From positions 64,001 to 128,000 of the forward strand of contig JBCCHT010000012.1 of assembly GCA_039028615.1 (NCBI GenBank): a DNA stretch of 64,000 bases, given 5' to 3'. Both the position numbers and the translations under genes were made by a program. Source of the DNA: Myxococcota bacterium (lineage in GTDB: Bacteria; Myxococcota_A; Polyangia; Nannocystales; Nannocystaceae). Each line of letters begins with the position of its first letter. Position 1 is the first letter of the stretch. The notes beneath the pieces were generated by a model. The model was not told the origin of the DNA and did not search any database. It was given only the letters and a program-made list of their open reading frames with translations. Positions 25,016 through 36,230 of the stretch are shown here, in pieces.

Positions 25016-27346
25016 TCAGCGATTCAGGTCGAAGCGATCGGCCCGCATGACCTTGGTCCAGGTCGCCACGAAGTCGCGCACGAAGGCCTCTTGGTCGTAG
25101 GCGTAGGCCTCGGCCACGGCCCGAAGCTCGGCGTTCGAGCCGAAGACCAGATCGACCTCGGTGGCCTTCCACTTCACGGCTCCCGAGTGGTCACGGCCCT
25201 CGAACACGTTCTTCGCCTGCGCGGGCTTCCACTGGGTGGACATGTCGAGCAGGTGGACGAAAAAATCGTTGCTGAGCGTGCCGGGACGCTCGGTCAAGAC
25301 CCCCACCCCGCCGTCCTCGGCGTTGTTGCCGAGGACGCGCAGGCCACCGAGCAACACCGTCATTTCCGGGACGCTCAGGTCGAGCAGGTCGGCCTTGTCG
25401 ATGAGGGCATCCGCCGGGCTGCGCAGCTCGTGCGCGGTGTAGTAGTTGCGGAAGCCGTCCGACTTTGGCTCGAGGGGCTCGAACGAGGGCACGTCCGTCT
25501 GGTCTTGCGTGGCGTCGACCCGACCCGGTTCGAAGGGCACCGTGACGCTCAGGCCACCGCGACGTGCCGACTCTTCGATGCCAGCCGCCCCCGCGAGCAC
25601 GATGAGGTCGGCCATGGAGACCTTCTTGCCTCGCGAGGCCGAAGCGTTGAACGCAGACTGCACCGAGGCGAGCGCGTCGAGGACCTCGCCGAGCTCCGCG
25701 GGTCGATTGACCTCCCAGCCCTTTTGCGGAGCCAGTCGGACGCGAGCCCCGTTGGCACCGCCACGCATGTCGGAGTCCCGGTAGGTCGAGGCCGAGGCCC
25801 AGGCGGTCCGCACGAGCGCGGCGGGGTCGATGCCCCGGGCGAGGATGTCCTTTTTGAGCGACGCGATGTCGCGTGCGTTCACGAGCGGGTGGTCGAGCTC
25901 AGGCAGCGGGTCCTGCCAGGCGAACACCTCCCGCGGCACGTCGGGACCCAGGTAGCGCGCCCGGGGGCCCAGATCGCGATGCGTCAGCTTGAACCAGGCT
26001 TTGGCGAACGCCGCTTCGAAGGCCTCCGGGTCGTCTCGGAAGCGCTCGGAGATGGCCTCGTACGCGGGGTCCTCCCGCAGCGAGAGATCGGTGGTCAGCA
26101 TCATCGGCGCATGACGCTTGGAGGCATCGTGTGCATCGGGGACCAGCGTGGCCGCCTCGCCGCCCGCGGGTCGCCACTGGATCGCGCCACCGGGCCCCTC
26201 GTGCTTTTCCCATTCGTAGTCGAAGAGGAAACGGAGGTACTGGTGGGTCCACTTGACGGGTGCCGCCGTCCAGGCGCCTTCGATGCCGCTGGTCACCGTG
26301 TCGACCCCCTTGCCGTCGCCGCAGCGGTTGTTCCACCCGAAGCCCTGCTCCACGATGGCTGCCGCGGCCGGCTCGGCCCCGACACAGTCGCCGGGTTTGT
26401 GGGCGCCGTGGGACTTGCCGAAGGTGTGACCCCCGGCGATGAGCGCGACCGTCTCTTCGTCGTTCATCGCCATGCGCGCGAAGGTCTGACGGATGTCGCC
26501 CGCGGCGGACACCGGGTCGCCGTTGGCATCGGGGCCCTCGGGATTGACGTAGATGAGGCCCATGTGGGCGGCACCGAGAGGTTCATCGAGCGTGCGGTCA
26601 CCGTGGAAACGGTCGCTGCCGAGCATCTCGGCCTCGGGCCCCCAGTACACGAGGTCGGCTTCCCAGTCGTCCTCGCGGCCCCCGGCAAAACCCAGGGTCT
26701 CGAAGCCCATGGACTCCATGCCCACCGTGCCCGCGAGCACCATGAGGTCGGCCCACGACAACGCCCGACCGTACTTGGCCTTGACCGGCCACAGGAGGCG
26801 ACGCGCCTTGTCGAGGTTGCCGTTGTCGGGCCAGCTGTTGAGCGGCTCGAAGCGGATCTGCCCGCCATCGGATCCGCCTCGCCCGTCCGTCACGCGGTAG
26901 GTCCCGGCGCTGTGCCACGCGAGCCGCACCATGAGCGGGCCGTAGTTGCCGTAGTCGGCCGGCCACCACGGCTGGCTGTCGGTGAGGACCGCCTCGATGT
27001 CCTTCTTCACCGCGTCGAAGTCGAGCGTGGCGAACTCGCGAGCGTAGTCGAAGTCGCGGCCATGGGGGTTGGCCGCCTCGTTGTGACGGAGCGCCCGCAG
27101 GTCGAGCTGGTCGGGCCACCAGTGGTCGTTGGGGATCGCCTCACCCGCCGCGAAGGCCTTCGTCGTGCCAGGGGCGCCCTCGTCGGCCGAGCTCGGGCCA
27201 GCGTCGGCGGCCGACCGAGCGGGTGCCTGGGACGCCGGCGTGGACTTCGCCGGGTCGCAGGACGCGACCAGAGCCAGGGACAAGGCGGCGCCGATGAGGG
27301 CCATCGCGCGTCGCGTACGAGGGTTGCGTGTCTCTCCGAGTCTCAC
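25016..27346 (-). CDS. katG: Catalase-peroxidase with an export/lipoprotein signal (start may be 27304)
   Basis: [37 protein letters not shown]-terminus TRRAMAL..LVASC. Confidence 0.97.
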
Positions 27347-27403: not shown

Positions 27404-27420
27404 GATAGGCAGGGCCTATC
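27404..27420. promoter_or_regulatory. OxyR-type binding site upstream of katG
   Basis: GATAGGC-AGG-GCCTATC, i.e. ATAG-N7-CTAT. Confidence 0.7.
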
Positions 27421-27439: not shown

Positions 27440-28345
27440 CTATCGCGGCATCACGCCGCGGAAGGCCACCACGAGCTCCTCGAGCACCCCGGAAAGAGGG
27501 TGCCCCTCGGTCGTGACGAGGGTCAGCGTGCGGCCGATCGTATCTTCGACGAAGGGCCGCACCTGGATCGGCGCTCGTGCTCGCTCCGCTTCCACGGCCA
27601 TGGCGGGCAACACACTGACGCCGAGCCCAGCCGCGACCATCTGCACCATGGTGACCAGGCTCGTCGCTCTGAACTGCGAGCGCTGAGTGCTGGGGAATCG
27701 GCACAGCGACAGCGTCTGATCGCGCAGGCAGTGCCCCTGCGCCAGCAACAAGAGCTGCTGCTCGTGCAGCCAGCTGACCGGCACCTCGTCGGGGAGCGAC
27801 ATCTCCTGTGGGGCGATCACCACGAACGGCTCCCAGCCCAGCTCGTGCCCCCGTTGACCGGGCTCCGTCGGAGGGTCGGCGATGACGATGGCGTCCGCCT
27901 TGCCGTGCGCCAGCGCCTCTTCGGCAGAGGTCGTCTGCAGCTCGAGCCAGTGAACGGTCGGGCCCTCCCCCGCCTTCATCGCCTGGCTGAGGGCGGGCAA
28001 CAGGTAGGGGGCGACGGTGGGGATGACCGCGATCCGTACGGGGACGGCGTAGGGATCGTGGAGGGTGGCGGCGGTGGCCTCGACGAGGGCGGCCGCGTTC
28101 AAGGCCTCGCGAAAGGCCGGCAGCTGGCGCTCACCCGCAGGCGAGAGAAACACGCCTTTGGGGGTGCGCACGAACAGCTCGGTGCCCAACACCGCCTCGA
28201 GCTTCGCGACCTGCGAGCTGAGGGACGGCTGCGAGACCCCACAAAGAGCCGCGGCTGCCCCGAAGCCTCCCGTCTCGGCCACGGCGAGAGCGTATTGGAG
28301 CTGGCGCAGGGAGAAGGCAGGAGTCTGGAACTGGTTGATGGCCAT
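27440..28345 (-). CDS. oxyR: OxyR-like LysR regulator
   Basis: LysR HTH (VSQPSLSSQVAKLE); GHCLRDQTLSLC carries both redox Cys; ATSLVTMVQMVAAGLG. Confidence 0.88.
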   Translation of the reverse strand: MAINQFQTPAFSLRQLQYALAVAETGGFGAAAALCGVSQPSLSSQVAKLEAVLGTELFVRTPKGVFLSPAGERQLPAFREALNAAALVEATAATLHDPYAVPVRIAVIPTVAPYLLPALSQAMKAGEGPTVHWLELQTTSAEEALAHGKADAIVIADPPTEPGQRGHELGWEPFVVIAPQEMSLPDEVPVSWLHEQQLLLLAQGHCLRDQTLSLCRFPSTQRSQFRATSLVTMVQMVAAGLGVSVLPAMAVEAERARAPIQVRPFVEDTIGRTLTLVTTEGHPLSGVLEELVVAFRGVMPR

Positions 28346-28441: not shown

Positions 28442-29683
28442 CTACCCGGGGGGAAGCTGCGGCGAGGCGATCCCGGTAATCTGCGGGATTCGGTTCTTGA
28501 GCCGCCGCTCGATGCCCTGGCGCAGCGTCGCCTGCGAGCTGGGGCAGCCGACACAGTTACCCGTGAGCTGCACGTGCACCACGTTGCCCTGGACGTCGAG
28601 CAGCTCGATGTCGCCGCCGTCGGCCTGCACCATCGGGCGACACTCGTCGAGCACCTCGCGAACACGGCCGACGAGGGCGTCTCCATCGAGGACCTCGTCG
28701 TCCGCCGCCGCTTCGCCCACGCCCAGCCCCTCGAAGGGCGAGCGCTCGGGGTGCAGCACGGGGAGCTTGAGCCGCGGCTTGGCCACCTTCGGGGAGACGG
28801 TCTCGCCTCCGACCGAGGTCCAGGCATCGATACCGCCGCCCAGGCTCACCGCGGAACGGAAGCCGTGGCTGCGCAGCGCCTGCACGGCGCGAAGCGAGCG
28901 TCCGCCCGACTTGCAGTACACGATCCACACGTCGTTGGCGTCGAGTTCGCCCGCTCTCGCGTCGAGGTCGTCGAGCGGGATGTGGAGGGACCCTGCGATC
29001 ATCCCTTGCTCCGTCTCGGCCTTGGTGCGGACGTCGATGAGCCGCAGGTCGGCGCCGGATTGCTTGCGGGCCCGCAGCTCCGCGACGTCGATCTCGTCGA
29101 CCAGCGCGTCGTCGGCCTCGGCCGGCTCGGGCGTGGCGGCGATGCGGGTCTGGAGCTCGCCCGACTGGTCGAGCGCACGCAGCTCCTCGAAGCCGCCGAT
29201 CGACTCGCCGTGGATGAAGATCTGCGGCGTGGTCTGCTGACCGGTCACGATCTTCAGCCAGCTCAAGGTCGCGTCGTCGCCCTTGATGTCGTGCTCGGCG
29301 AAGGGAATCTCGCGCTCGCGCAGCAGGTCCATCGCGGCGCGCGAGTAAGGGCAGCCTCGCTTGTAGTAGAACTCGACCGCGGGCTTGGCCGGCTCGGCGG
29401 CGGCCGCCTCCTCTTCCTCTTCGTCGGCCTTGACGATGCCGTGGTCGACCTGGTGCTTGCGCAGCTTGGCGCGGTCCGAGTCCCACATGTGCTGGTCGGG
29501 CGTTTCCCCCGTCCACTCGGGGTTGGGCGCCTGTGGAGGAATGTCGTCGAGACCGACCACGCCACGGGCACGATCGAGGACGGAGGCAGCCGCGCGCACG
29601 GGAGCGCGCTCGGAGCTACGCGCCTTGTCGACGACGACATCGAGGGTCTTGACCGTTACGCGGCGAAGGAGGGTGCCCAGCAT
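28442..29683 (-). CDS. Glutaredoxin-rhodanese-NifU(C) fusion protein
   Basis: CPYS..TTPQIFI..IGGF; YCKSGGRS; RPMVQADGGDIEL..GNCVGCPSSQATL. Confidence 0.85.
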   Translation of the reverse strand: MLGTLLRRVTVKTLDVVVDKARSSERAPVRAAASVLDRARGVVGLDDIPPQAPNPEWTGETPDQHMWDSDRAKLRKHQVDHGIVKADEEEEEAAAAEPAKPAVEFYYKRGCPYSRAAMDLLREREIPFAEHDIKGDDATLSWLKIVTGQQTTPQIFIHGESIGGFEELRALDQSGELQTRIAATPEPAEADDALVDEIDVAELRARKQSGADLRLIDVRTKAETEQGMIAGSLHIPLDDLDARAGELDANDVWIVYCKSGGRSLRAVQALRSHGFRSAVSLGGGIDAWTSVGGETVSPKVAKPRLKLPVLHPERSPFEGLGVGEAAADDEVLDGDALVGRVREVLDECRPMVQADGGDIELLDVQGNVVHVQLTGNCVGCPSSQATLRQGIERRLKNRIPQITGIASPQLPPG

Positions 29684-29784: not shown

Positions 29785-30819
29785 GTGGATCCACGAGGCA
29801 AGTGTGAGTTGGCCCTGTTGGTGTTCGTAGGGGCGTGTGGATCGACGAGTGAGGGACCTGCGGCCGCATCCGGGACTGAGGGTTCGACCAGCCTCGAGCA
29901 GAGCCAAGACCCGAGCGCCCCCGGTGACACGATGGCGGCGGCGGGCTCGAGCGGGGCCGCCGAAGCCACGGGCACGACCGGCGGTGCGGACTCGACCGGC
30001 GGATCGGACGACACCTCGCCGCCCCAGCTTCCGTGCAACGGTCACGTCGAGCTGTGCGACCGCTCCTTCGATCAAGTGGTGTTCCCCGGTACGCACAACA
30101 GCCACGCCGCACTCGACGACGGCTTCCCGATCATCAACGCCAACCACCAACGCGGCATCGCGCAGCAGCTCGATGATGGCGTGCGGGTGATGCTGCTGGA
30201 CATCTACCCCGACCCCGCCGACGACGAGCAGATCGTGCTGTGCCACGGCCCGTGCATCCTCGCTTCGCTGCCGCACCTCGACGGGCTCCAGACCATCGTC
30301 GACTTTTTGCGGGACAACCCCCGCGAGGTGCTGACCATCATCTATCAAGATGCGGTCGACGTCGAAGAGGTCGCGCAGGACTTCGCGCTGACTACCGCCG
30401 ACACGCTGACCTACGCGCACCAGCCCGGCACGGCATGGCCGACGCTCGGCGAGATGATCGAGGCCGACACCCGACTGGTCATCACCGCGGAGTCGGGCGG
30501 ACCCCCGCCCGCTTGGTACCACCACGTCTGGGACGAAGCCTGGGACACCCCCTACGGCCCCTCCTCCATCGACGACCTGTCGTGCGACCACAACCGCGGC
30601 TCGACCGATCACGACCTGTTCCTCATGAACCATTGGGTCAACACCCTGGTGGGGCTGCCCGATCAGGGCGGGGCGAGCGAGGTCAACTCCACCGACGTGC
30701 TGCTCACCCGCGCGCAAGAATGCTGGGAGCGGTGGGATCACCCGCCGAACTTCGTGGTGGTGGATTGGTACGAGCAGGGCGATCTGTTCGCGGTCGTCGA
30801 CACGCTCAACGGAATCTGA
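29785..30819 (+). CDS. PI-PLC-like phosphodiesterase lipoprotein
   Basis: CNGHVELCDR, GTHNS, QLDDGVR..LD, NPREV, PNFVVVDWY. Confidence 0.8.
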   Translation: MDPRGKCELALLVFVGACGSTSEGPAAASGTEGSTSLEQSQDPSAPGDTMAAAGSSGAAEATGTTGGADSTGGSDDTSPPQLPCNGHVELCDRSFDQVVFPGTHNSHAALDDGFPIINANHQRGIAQQLDDGVRVMLLDIYPDPADDEQIVLCHGPCILASLPHLDGLQTIVDFLRDNPREVLTIIYQDAVDVEEVAQDFALTTADTLTYAHQPGTAWPTLGEMIEADTRLVITAESGGPPPAWYHHVWDEAWDTPYGPSSIDDLSCDHNRGSTDHDLFLMNHWVNTLVGLPDQGGASEVNSTDVLLTRAQECWERWDHPPNFVVVDWYEQGDLFAVVDTLNGI

Positions 30820-30910
30820 CGCTTCGCCGTCCGAAAAATCGCCGCCTGACGTGAGTTCGTCGCCGGGCGAAGCCTTGATCGGGTGAGGTCGAAAACCCAC
30901 TACCGCCTTC

Positions 30911-33703
30911 GTGCCGCCGTTTCGAGGCCTCCTCGTCGCACTGGCCGGGCTGATGCTCACCGCCTGCGCCTTCTCCGCTAGCCGCCCCCACCTTCGCAAG
31001 CCGAGCCGCGACCTCGTCGTCCCCGGCGATGGCTTCCTCAAGACCTACGACAACGGGCTGACCCTGATGGTCGTGCCCGACCCCTACGCTCGGGTCGTCC
31101 AGTTCGACGTCCGCCACGAGGTCGGCTCCCGGGACGAGCCCATCGGACAAGAAGGCGTGGCCCACTTCGTCGAGCACCTCATGTACGAGCTGCCTTCGAA
31201 GGGCCCGGGCACCACGACGCTCTATGCGGAAGCCCGCGCGCGCTCGGTGGCGTTCAATGCCTATACCGCGCTCGACGAGACCCACTATCAATATACCGGG
31301 ATCTCCGAGCAGCTCCCGACCTATGTCGAGCACACCGCCAAGCGGCTGAATTTCGACTGCGGGGCCATCGACGACGCCGCCCTGGAGCAGGTCACGGAGA
31401 TCATCCGCAACGAGCTCCGCGAGCGTCGGGGCACCTCGAGCATGCAGGTTCGCGACCAGATCGTCGCCGCCATCTATCCCGAGGAGCACCCCTACCACCA
31501 CAGCGAAGCGGACTACGAACGGCTGGACTCGCTCACGTGGCACCAGCTGTGCACCTTCGCCACCGAGCACTACACCACCGATCGCACCACCATCGTCGTC
31601 ACGGGCAACGTCGATCCTCTGGCGGTCCTCGAGCTCACCAACCAGACGCTCGAGCCCCTGCCCGCCAAGGAGTCGGACCCACGCACCGCAATCCCGGAAT
31701 TCGAGCTACCCGTGGGGCGGGTCTCGCTCGAGTCTCCCGTCTCGTCCCCCAGCGCGCTGGTCGTGTTCCAGATGCCGCGGCGCTTCACCGAGGACTACGT
31801 GGCGACCCAGGTCGCAGCGACCGGCATCGAGATCTCCCTAGAGACGGTCATCAACCGGGATCGCGGGAACAACGACCGCTGGGACTTCACGTTCTCCTCG
31901 TGGCTGGGCGGCAAGGAGGCCCCGGTCTGGGCCATCGCGGTCGAGCCGGACGAGGACACCTCGCTCGACGATGCCGTGGACGAAGTCCTGGAGGTCCTCG
32001 AGCACGGCGGCAAGATGAACCCGACGACCGGGTCCTACGATCGCATCCGACAGATTCGTCGCCTCCAGCTGGTCGACGAGCTCGCGTCGATCTCCACTCG
32101 CTCGAAGGCCTACGCCGACTACCTCGAGGAGGGGGACACCCCGGGCTTCGTCGGCGCCGAGCTGGCCGCCATCGACACTCTCGACGAGCAAGAGATCCAG
32201 GCCGCCTGGCGCGATGTGTTTTCACGCGACCGCGCGATGCTCATCGAGCTGACGCCGACCGAAGATCCGGGCCGAGTCCAAATCGACCCCGAGCCCTTCG
32301 CGTACGACCCTACGCGCCACGAACGGCTATATCTGCCCGACGACATCGGGGCGGACGAAGCCAACCGTCCCCTCGAGGTGGTGGAGATCGCCCCGCCCGA
32401 CCTCGACCTGGTCGCCTACCGCACGAGCAACGGCATGCGGGTCGTCCTGGCCGCCTCGTCGCAGTTTCCCGTGATGCACACCCAGCTCATGGTCGGGGCC
32501 GGTACCGCTCATAGCCGGCGCCACCCCGAGACGGCGAAGCTGGCGATGGACCTCTATCGCGTCCACGCTCGGGAAAGCGCCAAGGTGTTGCGGCAATTCT
32601 TCAATGCGGGCGGCGTGTACAGCCGCTCGATGGACGCCTACAGCACGACCTACCGCGCCCAGGGCCTGTCCATCTACCTCGACTTCATCCTGGCCGGGCT
32701 ATCGGATCGCATCCTTCAAGCGCAGTACTCGAACGATGGCTTCGATCAGTGGAAGAAGACGGCGCGTGTACTCGCCGAGAACCCGAAGATCGCAGCGGCG
32801 CTTCGTCGGCGGCAGCTGCTTCTGAGTTCGCTCTACGGCGAGGGACATCCGCTGGCCCGCTCTCCGGGCGGCCCCAAGGACATCAAGAAAGTCCGAGGCG
32901 TCCCCGTCAACCGATTCCGCAGCCGCTACTTTCGGGCTCCCAACGCCACGTTGGTCGTGACCGGCAACTTCGACATGGCCCTGGCCACCGACCACATCGA
33001 AGCCGGCTTCGGCAAGCCTCGGAACACCAACCAGTTCACGGTGTGGAACCGTCGGATGGACTACACCACGCCCGAGATACCCCCCATCTCGCCACACTGG
33101 GGCCGCACGCTCACCCAGGTGGACGACGATCGGGTCCAGACCGAGGTCCAGCTCATCTATCCGATGGACTCGGTCTACGGGCGACGGCATGCCGCCCTCC
33201 TGGTCCTCGCCGCGATGCTCGACCTCAGCGTCAGCCGCGTACGCGAGGAGCTGTCCGTCTCCTACGGAGCGAGTGCCTTCCTGGATCGAGATCAACCGAG
33301 CCTGGTGGTCACGGCCAGCCTCGACAGCGGCCGGGCGAACGAGGGCCTCGAGGCACTCCGAGCGTCCATCATCGCGGCGACGTCGGCCGATGATTTCGAA
33401 CGTCGCTTCGCCTTCGCGCGCCGCCAGCAGATGGAGTCGATGCTCCTGACCCATGGTGACCCCGGCCGCCTCGCCGACGAACTCGCCACCGCCGTGCGGC
33501 ACGAGGGCAGCGTCAACTACTTCTATGCACTCGCCGAGCGGATCGCCGTGCTCCAGCCCAGCGACGTCGTGGCCGTGGCGCACGAGCTGTTCGACCACGG
33601 GGGGCCCATCACCCACGTCATCGGACCCGGGGACAGCATCGAGCAGATCGTCGCCGGCCTCGACCCGAGCACCGTGCTCGAGCTGCCCGAAACTCCACGA
33701 TGA
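30911..33703 (+). CDS. M16 (insulinase/pitrilysin) zinc peptidase
   Basis: NGLT, VGSRDEP..GVAHFVEHLM, NAYT; second M16 half starting SNGMRV. Confidence 0.88.
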   Translation: MPPFRGLLVALAGLMLTACAFSASRPHLRKPSRDLVVPGDGFLKTYDNGLTLMVVPDPYARVVQFDVRHEVGSRDEPIGQEGVAHFVEHLMYELPSKGPGTTTLYAEARARSVAFNAYTALDETHYQYTGISEQLPTYVEHTAKRLNFDCGAIDDAALEQVTEIIRNELRERRGTSSMQVRDQIVAAIYPEEHPYHHSEADYERLDSLTWHQLCTFATEHYTTDRTTIVVTGNVDPLAVLELTNQTLEPLPAKESDPRTAIPEFELPVGRVSLESPVSSPSALVVFQMPRRFTEDYVATQVAATGIEISLETVINRDRGNNDRWDFTFSSWLGGKEAPVWAIAVEPDEDTSLDDAVDEVLEVLEHGGKMNPTTGSYDRIRQIRRLQLVDELASISTRSKAYADYLEEGDTPGFVGAELAAIDTLDEQEIQAAWRDVFSRDRAMLIELTPTEDPGRVQIDPEPFAYDPTRHERLYLPDDIGADEANRPLEVVEIAPPDLDLVAYRTSNGMRVVLAASSQFPVMHTQLMVGAGTAHSRRHPETAKLAMDLYRVHARESAKVLRQFFNAGGVYSRSMDAYSTTYRAQGLSIYLDFILAGLSDRILQAQYSNDGFDQWKKTARVLAENPKIAAALRRRQLLLSSLYGEGHPLARSPGGPKDIKKVRGVPVNRFRSRYFRAPNATLVVTGNFDMALATDHIEAGFGKPRNTNQFTVWNRRMDYTTPEIPPISPHWGRTLTQVDDDRVQTEVQLIYPMDSVYGRRHAALLVLAAMLDLSVSRVREELSVSYGASAFLDRDQPSLVVTASLDSGRANEGLEALRASIIAATSADDFERRFAFARRQQMESMLLTHGDPGRLADELATAVRHEGSVNYFYALAERIAVLQPSDVVAVAHELFDHGGPITHVIGPGDSIEQIVAGLDPSTVLELPETPR

Positions 33704-33770
33704 TCCCGCGAGCACGCGCCCCTCGAAGCTCGGCGTGCGCGGCTCGTTCCGCACGACCGCCGAAGAGGCG

Positions 33771-33799
33771 GCTCGAGCAGCCGAAGGCGCTGCTCGAGC
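33771..33799. terminator. Hairpin between convergent M16 and rpsD genes
   Basis: GCTCGAGCAGC-7nt-GCTGCTCGAGC; no U tract. Confidence 0.45.
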
Positions 33800-33807
33800 G
33801 GTGAGCC

Positions 33808-34416
33808 CTACTTGGCGTAGAACTCGACGATCAGCTGGGTGTCGACCTCGAGCAAGACGTCCTGCGGGGTCGGCATCGCGACCACCGTGGCCACCTGGTT
33901 ATTCGAGTCCCAGCTCAGCCACGACGGCGGCGAAAAGCGGGGCTGGGCCAGCGATTCCTTGACGATCTCGAAGCCGCGCGAGCGCTCGGTCATCTCGATC
34001 CGGTCGCCCACCTTCACTCGAATCGAAGGGATGTCGACGCGACGCCCGCCGACGATGAGGTGGCGATGATTGATGAGCTGCCGCGCCCCGGGAATGGTCG
34101 GCGCGATGCCGAGCCGAAACGCCACGTTGTCGAGACGCCGCTCGAGCAGGTTGAGCATGTTGTCGCCCGTGATCCCCTTGGCCGCGTGGGCCTCTCGGTA
34201 GATCCGGCGAAGCTGGCGCTCGGTGAGACCGTAGTTGTAGCGAAGCTTCTGCTTCTCGAGCAGCTGCATCGCGTACTCGGAAGGGCGTCGACGTGGCCTC
34301 GAGCCATGCTGGCCGGGGCGTTGCGGGCGACGATCACGACTCTTGCGGGTGAGGCCAGGCAGCTCGCTGTCGAGCGCCCGCATCACCCGTACTCGGGGAC
34401 CGGTATAGCGACTCAT
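33808..34416 (-). CDS. rpsD: 30S ribosomal protein S4, cysteine-free stand-alone paralog
   Basis: MSRYTGP..PGQHG..SEYAMQLLEKQKLR..LERRLDNV..ARQLINHRH..IVEFYAK; GGAG RBS. Confidence 0.97.
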   Translation of the reverse strand: MSRYTGPRVRVMRALDSELPGLTRKSRDRRPQRPGQHGSRPRRRPSEYAMQLLEKQKLRYNYGLTERQLRRIYREAHAAKGITGDNMLNLLERRLDNVAFRLGIAPTIPGARQLINHRHLIVGGRRVDIPSIRVKVGDRIEMTERSRGFEIVKESLAQPRFSPPSWLSWDSNNQVATVVAMPTPQDVLLEVDTQLIVEFYAK

Positions 34417-34448
34417 GGGTACTCCGTTGGGGTAAGGACGGAAGGCGA

Positions 34449-35378
34449 TCAGCCGACCAACGCCGGCCAGACCAACGCGAGCATCCATATGCTCGCGACC
34501 ACACCCGACAGCATCACGACCCAGCCAACGCGACGAAGACGACGAAGCTGCCACCACATCACAACCCCAGTGATGCTCCACATGATCAGGCAGAAGATCG
34601 TCAGATCTACGACGAAGGCGTGGATCCACGGCACCCCGAATTCGGCGGGGTAGGTGTGGGTCATGTGCAGCCGAGCAAGAATTCGGCTGGTTCGAACCTC
34701 GGGTTCTTCGATTTCCTCGAACTCGGGTTTCTGGGTCACCGCGTCGTAGGTGACCCGCCAAGGGCGACCGTCGATGGTCGCCACGAACTCGATCTTCGGC
34801 GCAGACTCGAGCTTCAAGGCCTCGGGCTCGTCGAGCCACGGCTCGGCCGCGGCCTCGACCATGCGCTCGAAGATGGCCGGCTCGAGCGCATCGACCGGCA
34901 TCGACTCGACCTCGGCGAAGGCCTCGGGCTGCGCGGGCTCCTCGACCGGGCTCATGCGCAGCGAGCCGTTGCCACTGCGTGCGCCCAGGAATAGACGCAC
35001 GCGCTGGTCGTCGATCTCGCCTCGGGCGCGTAGCGACCCCCCGTACTCGGGGAGCGGCGTCGGCTGCAGCTCGATCTGCGCGTCGGGGGCCGTGGCTCGC
35101 ATCGCCTCTACCGCAGCCTCGGCGGCGGACTCGGGCGTGGGCACGTCGGCCAGCACCTGCGGCGGCAGATCATCGCGGACGAAGCGATGCACGCCCGGCG
35201 AACCCGACAAGCTCGGGTGATTGAAGAGCAGGCCGCTGATGGCGTACATCAGCACCCAGGGCACCATGGCGAGCCCCGCGTACAGGTGCGTACGACGAAT
35301 GATCTTCAAGATCTTCGCGTTGCGTGCCGCGCGAGCGCGGTCCCGTGCGGGCGGGCGAGCCATGGTGTCCGGGGTCAT
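34449..35378 (-). CDS. PepSY-associated TM helix protein
   Basis: RRTHLYAGL..SGLLFNH; ARLHM; SITGVVMWW. Confidence 0.8.
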   Translation of the reverse strand: MTPDTMARPPARDRARAARNAKILKIIRRTHLYAGLAMVPWVLMYAISGLLFNHPSLSGSPGVHRFVRDDLPPQVLADVPTPESAAEAAVEAMRATAPDAQIELQPTPLPEYGGSLRARGEIDDQRVRLFLGARSGNGSLRMSPVEEPAQPEAFAEVESMPVDALEPAIFERMVEAAAEPWLDEPEALKLESAPKIEFVATIDGRPWRVTYDAVTQKPEFEEIEEPEVRTSRILARLHMTHTYPAEFGVPWIHAFVVDLTIFCLIMWSITGVVMWWQLRRLRRVGWVVMLSGVVASIWMLALVWPALVG

Positions 35379-35383
35379 CGTGT

Positions 35384-35986
35384 CTAGAGGTTCGCGCTGT
35401 GCTGCGCGAGGTAGTCGGCCACGCCCTCGGGGTTGGCCTTCATGCCGGGGTCACCCTTGTTCCAGCCGGCGGGGCAGACCTCGCCGTGCTCCTCGTGGAA
35501 CTGCAGGGCGTCGACCAGGCGCGTCAGCTCGTCCATGTTCCGCCCGAGCGGGAGGTCGTTGACGATCTGCGAGCGCACGGTGCCCTCGCGGTCGATGAGG
35601 AAGCTGGCGCGCAGAGCCACGCCGCCGTCGGTCTGGACCCCATAGGCCTGGCAGATCTCGTGCTTGACGTCGGCGACCATGGTGAAGCCCACCGGTCCGA
35701 TGCCGCCCTTGTCGACCGCGGTGTTCCGCCACGCGTGGTGGGTGAACTGCGAGTCGATGGACACGGCAATGACCTCCACGTTGCGCTCGCGCAGCGCGGG
35801 CACTCGGCGGTCCAGAGCGATCAGCTCCGAAGGACACACGAACGTGAAGTCCAGCGGATAGAACACGAGCACGCCGTAGCGAGACTTCAGCGCATTCGAC
35901 ATGGACCAGTCGTCGGCGATCGTGCCGTCGGGCAGGACGGCGGAGGCCGAGAACATGGGAGCGGGACGAGTAACGAGTACGGACAT
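35384..35986 (-). CDS. ahpC: 2-Cys peroxiredoxin (AhpC/TSA)
   Basis: FYPLDFTFVCPSE; GEVCPAGW. Confidence 0.97.
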   Translation of the reverse strand: MSVLVTRPAPMFSASAVLPDGTIADDWSMSNALKSRYGVLVFYPLDFTFVCPSELIALDRRVPALRERNVEVIAVSIDSQFTHHAWRNTAVDKGGIGPVGFTMVADVKHEICQAYGVQTDGGVALRASFLIDREGTVRSQIVNDLPLGRNMDELTRLVDALQFHEEHGEVCPAGWNKGDPGMKANPEGVADYLAQHSANL

Positions 35987-36003
35987 TCGGATGAACCTGA
36001 TTA

Positions 36004-36047
36004 GATTTTGAAAATCAAAATCGACAAACTCGATAGAACGGTTCAAT
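36004..36047. promoter_or_regulatory. AT-rich control region of ahpC: Fur/PerR-like box plus OxyR-like site
   Basis: GATTTTGA-AAA-TCAAAATC (36004-36022) and ATAG-N7-CAAT (36033-36047). Confidence 0.6.
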
Positions 36048-36230
36048 CGCCGTTTCAACTCATTAATCGAGAAATGATGAATGCGCTTGCTCACCAATTG
36101 AAATCCCATATCATCCGGGATCCTCCGTGGGCTCGCCGCTCGACGCGGCGGCACGAGCGTCGGTCCCGCCGTCGATCCGCGGACCGCGTCGACACGGCGC
36201 AGTTTCTGTGGGCTCGCTCGAACGATCGGC

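Follow-up and report, generated by a model that had tools for sequence, protein, structure and literature searches.

A cysteine-free ribosomal protein S4 gene behind ahpC in a Myxococcota genome and its probable place among Fur-controlled iron genes

The 64,000-nucleotide (nt) stretch of Myxococcota bacterium assembly GCA_039028615.1 analyzed here (contig JBCCHT010000012.1, positions 64,001 to 128,000; hereafter the window) carries a minus-strand run of three genes, in which the peroxiredoxin gene ahpC is followed after 5 nt by a gene for a PepSY-associated transmembrane (PepSY-TM) protein and, after a gap of 32 nt, by rpsD2, an extra gene for ribosomal protein S4 (Table 1). The orientation and gaps agree with an earlier model-generated account of the same DNA (the sequence-only reading), in which the run was proposed to supply oxidation-resistant ribosomes under peroxide or metal stress. 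The ahpC product has the motifs of a typical 2-Cys peroxiredoxin, FTFVCP at the peroxidatic Cys51 and EVCPAGW at the resolving Cys171, and its closest model is PRK15000 (281 bits, under the cut-off of 301), while rpsD2 passes the NCBIfam cut-offs for S4 (NF003717, 237 bits against 116; TIGR01017, 218 against 177) and has an intact reading frame and normal codon use (guanine-plus-cytosine content, GC, at third codon positions, 0.84). Comparison with relatives and with Myxococcus xanthus makes it very probable that the family of S4 paralogs to which rpsD2 belongs is controlled by iron through Fur.

The rpsD2 product contains no cysteine and its gene lies outside the rpsM-rpsK-rpsD-rpoA context, as had been stated from the letters alone, and it lacks a seven-residue insert while keeping the PGxHG motif, features of the C-(IV) class of S4 (PMC3087516, section 5). 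The second, CxxC-bearing rpsD for which the sequence-only reading had suggested a search is present at C55:70820-71449, between rpsK and rpoA in the alpha operon (rpsM-rpsK-rpsD-rpoA-rplQ). Its product has cysteines at positions 9, 12, 26, and 31, is seven residues longer than that of rpsD2 and 49% identical to it, and the genome (12.3 Mb, 68% GC) thus holds a cysteine-bearing (C-plus) original in the alpha operon and a cysteine-free (C-minus) copy elsewhere. The best match of the C-plus protein in the PDB shares all four cysteines, with the CxxC...CxxxxC pattern aligned with that of a solved S4, and the matched entries are those of Thermus, as we take it. The uS4 of Thermus thermophilus has been described as coordinating an Fe4S4 cluster, in contrast to the eight proteins that carry zinc (PMC10450194), and by analogy the alpha-operon S4 here may bind Fe4S4 through C9/C12/C26/C31.

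An AT-rich palindrome is common to the promoters of S4 paralogs and of haem-uptake genes in relatives, and a matrix for it was trained on eight haem-uptake promoter sites from three of them (G006, G022, and G015), with none taken from an S4 or ahpC operon. In this genome the matrix yields 38 clustered sites, and the 20 regions annotated include flavodoxin, a siderophore-interacting protein, IucA/IucC, two imelysins, three further PepSY-TM genes, TonB receptors, HmuY, and nickel superoxide dismutase (Ni-SOD), along with several genes without a clear iron link. Because sites occur at siderophore, haem-uptake, flavodoxin, and Ni-SOD genes, the set is read as an iron regulon and the palindrome as a probable Fur box. 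The two sites before ahpC are the top two of the window and such a pair arose in 0/2000 dinucleotide shuffles, so that the run shares with iron-uptake genes a box that stands above chance and the Fur-family-like palindrome noticed earlier is real and double; no iron box lies within 250 nt of rpsD2 itself. A separate palindrome, TGCAA-N5-TTGCA, precedes COG0523 genes and a second Fur-family gene and is therefore probably a Zur box. The genus-level matrix for it, assigned to Zur from gene context alone, scores 2.8 before ahpC and at best 5.4 over the operon, vs 13–18.5 at its 23 best sites, in keeping with the earlier expectation that the paralog is probably not under Zur. The genome yielded just two genes of the Fur family, of which the second is the one associated with the zinc-type box.

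Table 1. Features of the ahpC–rpsD2 locus and of the oxyR-katG context in the window
Feature	Position	Strand	Remarks
ahpC	35384-35986	-	200 amino acids (aa); Cys51 and Cys171 motifs
PepSY-associated TM gene	34449-35378	-	309 aa; PF03929
rpsD2, extra ribosomal protein S4 gene of C-(IV) type	33808-34416	-	202 aa, 0 Cys
GC-rich hairpins 3' of the rpsD2 stop, between convergent genes	33745-33807	-	z -3.18; 2/200 shuffles equally stable
Fur-type iron box, distal	36097-36115	.	score 14.9; best site in window
Fur-type iron box, proximal, ~20-40 nt before ahpC start	36007-36025	.	score 13.6
OxyR-like half-site ATAG-N7-CAAT	36033-36047	.	one mismatch from katG half-site
OxyR-like LysR regulator gene (context)	27440-28345	-	upstream of katG; best NCBIfam model OxyR, under cut-off
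katG catalase-peroxidase (context)	25016-27346	-	ATAG-N7-CTAT half-site at 27405-27419

Iron control is supported by the comparison of extra and sole copies of this S4 type. With a box counted at a score of at least 13 within 2 kb upstream (background 0.7% per 2.4 kb), the extra S4 has an iron box in 18/21 two-copy genomes, made up of 15/15 within the family (11 of them within 200 nt) and 3/6 outside it, and in two further genomes (G211 and G456) it closes a same-strand TonB/haem cluster with a box at its head (scores of 12.8 at 3.1 kb and 19.9 at 10 kb). The alpha-operon copies of 14 two-copy family relatives each carry four cysteines and no box. Among 19 genomes in which a cysteine-poor S4 is the sole match and the alpha operon runs straight from rpsK to rpoA, a box was found at 1/19, at a locus of 40% GC, when 2 kb upstream was checked (1.5 kb for two genomes). 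The two closest orthologs of rpsD2 (71–74% identical) have an iron box directly upstream. The Zur-like matrix outscores the iron matrix at 2/21 other paralog loci (G456 and G058, with Zur scores of 10.3 and 0.7), where the scanned stretch holds no iron box, and it passes 13 at one locus (G163, 15.0 vs 25.7 for iron). A 62-sequence tree, not rooted by an outgroup, intermixes the extra copies with the sole ones (e.g., G399 with G175), and no order of events is drawn from it. Left out of the counts were G064, whose second S4 lies in a 48% GC alpha operon and is probably contamination; G015, with a box present, rpsK not found, and the copy number unclear; G413 (rpsK not found); G148, whose alpha operon itself contains the C-minus gene; G171 (two matches without listed coordinates); G488 and G490 (one match each, alpha operon unchecked); and G660 (gene split over two contigs). 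A Fisher P on a looser count (19/2), which involves related genomes, was not used, nor was a wider contig scan that returned, among the matches listed, mostly distant housekeeping S4 genes, with 3/76 distant loci at 13 or above.

Two side observations concern these copies. In one family member (L088, G007:C274, and L036) the alpha operon is without rpsD and the sole, cysteine-free S4 is without an iron box, and the alpha-operon contig of G064 (L085, G064:C1160) has 48% GC in a high-GC genome bin.

The link between ahpC and the paralog is looser than the window suggests, and the synteny check in relatives proposed by the sequence-only reading went against conservation. A cysteine-poor S4 outside the alpha operon occurs in 17/73 genomes of the family and in 3/6 of the genus, with a co-oriented ahpC directly upstream in 3/17 (G000, G006, and G022), and at a distance of 4 kb in G066; in G368, a sole-copy genome, the S4 gene likewise shares its cluster with ahpC. 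Neither of the two same-genus relatives with the paralog has an adjacent ahpC. Elsewhere its neighbors are haem ATP-binding cassette transporters, HmuY, TonB receptors, PepSY-TM genes, or sodN, the last lying downstream of the paralog in G002. This type of ahpC is present in 21/73 family genomes, 12 of them without a detected paralog, and an iron box lies no more than 1.5 kb upstream in 15/21, often ahead of a DUF3501 gene; the ahpC-pepSY unit occurs without rpsD2 in G002 and G013. Since the two genes carry the box separately in relatives and are not adjacent in 14/17, ahpC and rpsD2 are, as judged from these sites, distinct members of one iron regulon, brought together in some genomes. In many family relatives, a gene of 130–150 aa from no known family follows or overlaps the paralog stop (L076:8312-8731, L079:7113-7514, L034:8028-8456, and L035:7961-8362); it is absent from the window, and its product gave no match in Pfam and no usable match in the Atlas.

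Published transcript data are available for the M. xanthus ortholog MXAN_6805, which is presumably the C-minus copy because of the listing of Chen, Roberts, and Luthey-Schulten (2009) and because MXAN_3325 lies in the midst of ribosomal genes. Table S2A of PMC9548883 annotates this extra rpsD with a "putative Fur box" and gives it log2 increases of 2.2 and 1.8 during predation, and it increases in predation alongside iron-uptake genes (PMC9548883; PMC6791715). The main text of PMC9548883 cites the S4 paralog as MXAN_6908, which is glucose-6-phosphate isomerase in its own table, where the rpsD row is MXAN_6805. In published RNA-seq data (log expression, 18 hand-picked genes), MXAN_6805 correlates at r 0.94–0.98 with fepA, mxcH, hmuY, haem oxygenase, dhbC, and MXAN_5024, and it does not co-vary with ahpC (-0.01), ahpD (0.04), sod, or katE, the range over ahpD, catalases, and superoxide dismutase being -0.54 to 0.58. 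With the L28, S14, and L33 paralogs r is -0.27 to 0.38 (-0.32 to 0.38 with COG0523 included); those paralogs are near silent (mean 6–18 fragments per kilobase per million) and MXAN_6805 swings about fivefold, the ratio of paralog to original S4 transcript ranging over 0.06–1.03.

Extra S4 copies were also compared in other phyla. Among 121 Bacillota genomes there are two true two-copy genomes, and both extra copies have a Fur-consensus match just upstream (18/19 and 16/19) that is the best of a 9-kb region, arose in 0/1000 shuffles each, and fits the PerR and Zur consensus less well. One of these Fur-boxed copies (G720, L339:4577-5208) keeps three cysteines in the pattern H-x2-C...C-x4-C, which speaks against a protein made cysteine-free to resist oxidation; the pattern would fit loss of the four-cysteine cluster site, and the protein may be a zinc-binding form that replaces one with four cysteines. 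In the betaproteobacterial order of the Dechloromonas record, the S4 type occurs in 8/151 genomes, six with a second S4 bearing N-terminal cysteines and two with one match, and the Fur-consensus match is weak (10–14/19 for the six and 11/19 for the two, against the Escherichia coli consensus); in G613 hemP and a TonB receptor follow the paralog. A palindrome test in these betaproteobacteria was rejected as circular, since the palindrome had been written after the sites were seen.

Iron-sparing substitutions, such as flavodoxin for ferredoxin or an iron-free superoxide dismutase for the iron enzyme, replace an iron protein by an iron-free one in iron shortage. Flavodoxin and Ni-SOD stand at the same box here, and because Thermus S4 is reported to bind Fe4S4, we infer a like swap of S4 under Fur; it would differ from the known substitutions in replacing a protein central to ribosome assembly. 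In plentiful iron, Fur would repress one transcript running from ahpC through rpsD2, and the housekeeping S4 would hold Fe4S4 on its four cysteines as in Thermus. In iron shortage, Fur would release the metal-free S4 alongside flavodoxin and Ni-SOD; this S4 would enter newly made 30S subunits, saving up to four irons per ribosome, and would free 30S assembly from the supply of Fe-S clusters. The gene ahpC would adjoin rpsD2 because both belong to one regulon. The whole model, with rpsD2 as a Fur-controlled spare S4 for iron starvation, is considered reasonably probable. A broader proposal is more tentative and may well fail: the "zinc-ribbon" S4 of many bacteria would be an Fe4S4 protein and ribosomes an iron sink, the distant lineages myxobacteria, betaproteobacteria, and Clostridia would each have, as a substitute that spares iron, a Fur-controlled S4 lacking the four-cysteine site, and in some lineages the sole cysteine-free S4 genes would be former iron-starvation spares freed of Fur control.

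Several points weigh against iron control of rpsD2 or against the sparing model. At the locus itself, the boxes lie 1.6–1.7 kb from rpsD2 and are weak genome-wide, ranking 29 and 33 of 38, and the presence of the paralog in only 17/73 family genomes indicates that it is dispensable. One two-copy genome (G058) has no iron box, the sole copy of G368 still lies 5 kb behind the box of a box-headed cluster with ahpC between, and the genomes compared are top matches rather than a random sample and include kin that are not independent. The expression support comes from the M. xanthus ortholog rather than from this organism, in ten samples representing five conditions with iron unmeasured; there, r is only 0.69 with the Fur-box gene MXAN_1314 and is 0.76 with znuA, at low counts, and the C-plus transcript does not fall when MXAN_6805 rises (r -0.31), nor in co-culture. 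The case for Fe4S4 in S4 is built on Thermus uS4, not on a myxobacterial one, and the Thermus site was described as zinc by Chen et al. (2009; PMC3087516).

The last two points bear on the reading that the paralog is iron- and Fur-controlled without sparing iron, so that in iron starvation it adjusts translation, through fidelity or through the entry of mRNA at S4, or serves as an extraribosomal RNA-binding regulator, the housekeeping S4 binding zinc. All of the regulatory evidence fits such a role equally well, as do the C-plus transcript that stays high as the paralog rises in M. xanthus, the small gene of unknown family closely 3' of the paralog in many relatives, and the E. coli uS4 mutation that alters mistranslation and H2O2 tolerance (PMC8141631). 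It is nevertheless rather unlikely, since it leaves unexplained why, in the copy under iron control, it is precisely the cysteine site that is missing or changed, and the same protein type serves as the sole housekeeping S4 in the 19 genomes intermixed with extra copies on the tree.

The peroxide part of the earlier proposal, in which OxyR, or the box serving in a PerR-like way, would induce ahpC and rpsD2 together, draws on the half-site before ahpC, which resembles that of katG, and on the oxyR-katG pair 6 kb away. An OxyR site is a tandem of ATAG-N7-CTAT elements. The perfect element stands before katG, and the likeness claimed by the sequence-only reading is present before ahpC, but there it is a single half-site with one mismatch; 0.25% of 2000 shuffled versions of the upstream region contained it, in a test made after the motif was seen, and ATAG-N7-CAAT and ATAG-N7-CTAT each occur eight times in the genome. 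Within 250 nt before this ahpC type, such a half-site is found in 1/21 loci (this genome) and is absent from the other 20, against 15/21 for the iron box. The association of the paralog with ahpC in G006, G022, G066, and G368 and with sodN in G002 favors peroxide, and an Fe-S S4 would be oxidant-sensitive, so that peroxide could be a local second input. The 14/17 paralogs without adjacent ahpC, the flat correlations with ahpC, ahpD, sod, and katE, the absence of an iron box at katG, the three cysteines of the Fur-boxed G720 copy, and the tie of the second of just two Fur-family genes to a zinc-type box make peroxide control quite improbable. Of the stress inputs suggested earlier, metal stands, as iron with Fur-type boxes, and oxidation-resistant ribosomes are not supported; the iron signal is real and more general, and peroxide is the weaker way to read it. 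A classical zinc-sparing paralog under Zur would match the textbook behavior of other C-minus paralogs and the znuA correlation in M. xanthus, but the score of 2.8 before ahpC, the rarity of Zur-like matches at other paralog loci, and the near-silent L28, S14, and L33 paralogs leave very little room for it. Equally hard to credit is a chance insertion of a horizontally acquired S4 behind ahpC-pepSY, silent or with its own constitutive promoter: patchy presence in the genus, the lack of a box close to rpsD2, and the ahpC-pepSY units without it agree with such an event, against which stand the boxes directly upstream of the two closest orthologs, the intact frame with normal codon use, and the gap of just 32 nt.

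Parts of this picture were already known. Pairs of C-plus and C-(IV) S4 have been described in M. xanthus, Sorangium, Bdellovibrio, and Nitrosomonas (Chen et al., 2009; PMC3087516), and the pair described here is like them, with the C-plus gene being part of the alpha operon and its C-(IV) partner outside it and without the four cysteines and the seven-residue insert. In the sections of that paper on S4, the site is taken as zinc, a Zur site was looked for and found at none of the S4 paralogs, and regulation is left open; the whole words "iron" and "Fur" are absent from its main text. Zur-controlled zinc-sparing paralogs (L31, L33, S14, S18, L28, and L36) are similar in being metal-free backups of a cysteine-ligated original under a Fur-family repressor, whereas here the box and regulon are of the iron/Fur type, a Zur-like box is absent, and the original may bind Fe4S4. 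MXAN_6805 is likewise an extra rpsD with a putative Fur box (PMC9548883; PMC6791715), but its neighbors are a multidrug and toxin extrusion (MATE) transporter and a hydrolase and ahpC is not adjacent; in PMC9548883 the box is a table comment, and the text passages on the two S4s read them as life-cycle regulation. A literature search confined to open papers, with subscription papers and the Altmeyer 2010 thesis outside its scope, found none in which iron, Fur, or an Fe-S cluster is connected with S4 paralogs, and nothing on S4 was found in passages of PMC9731571 and PMC3050691 or in the supplement of PMC11388931. The S4 pair and the M. xanthus Fur box, as a table comment, are thus known, and the iron link of S4 paralogs is, within that scope, the new part. 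A Clostridium acetobutylicum iron-limitation study reportedly listed an rpsD among Fur-controlled genes and may be prior art. The iron link offers an answer to the question left in 2009, namely what switches on S4 paralogs without Zur boxes, and the sparing model, if true, would provide for iron a counterpart to the ribosomal swap that spares zinc, and would tie 30S assembly to Fe-S supply. The model is directly testable in M. xanthus, for which a furA mutant exists (PMC11388931).

Other features of the locus and genome are minor. A sigma-70 scan of the locus found no promoter and a terminator search found none on the minus strand; the hairpins behind rpsD2 lack a U-tract and no terminator is called there. 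No RNA holders are listed for this stretch, and a plasmid search returned nothing of use. In the six genus genomes, ZnuA was not found via PF01297 and S14 has one match each; a candidate Zur gene lies with a TonB receptor (L064:1384-3297, L294, and L309), and the TGCAA-N5-TTGCA box also stands at COG0523 genes in the genus. Ni-SOD and its maturation peptidase lie behind strong iron boxes at L045:4623-6185 (G000:C16). Behind the second-best iron box, at L044:4262-5233 (G000:C40, about 30260-31230), lie a gene for a small protein with CxxC..H and a DUF3501-like gene, a pair that forms the upstream half of the module preceding ahpC in relatives. In the window, a minus-strand gene for a glutaredoxin-rhodanese-NifU fusion protein (28442-29683) lies directly upstream of oxyR-katG.
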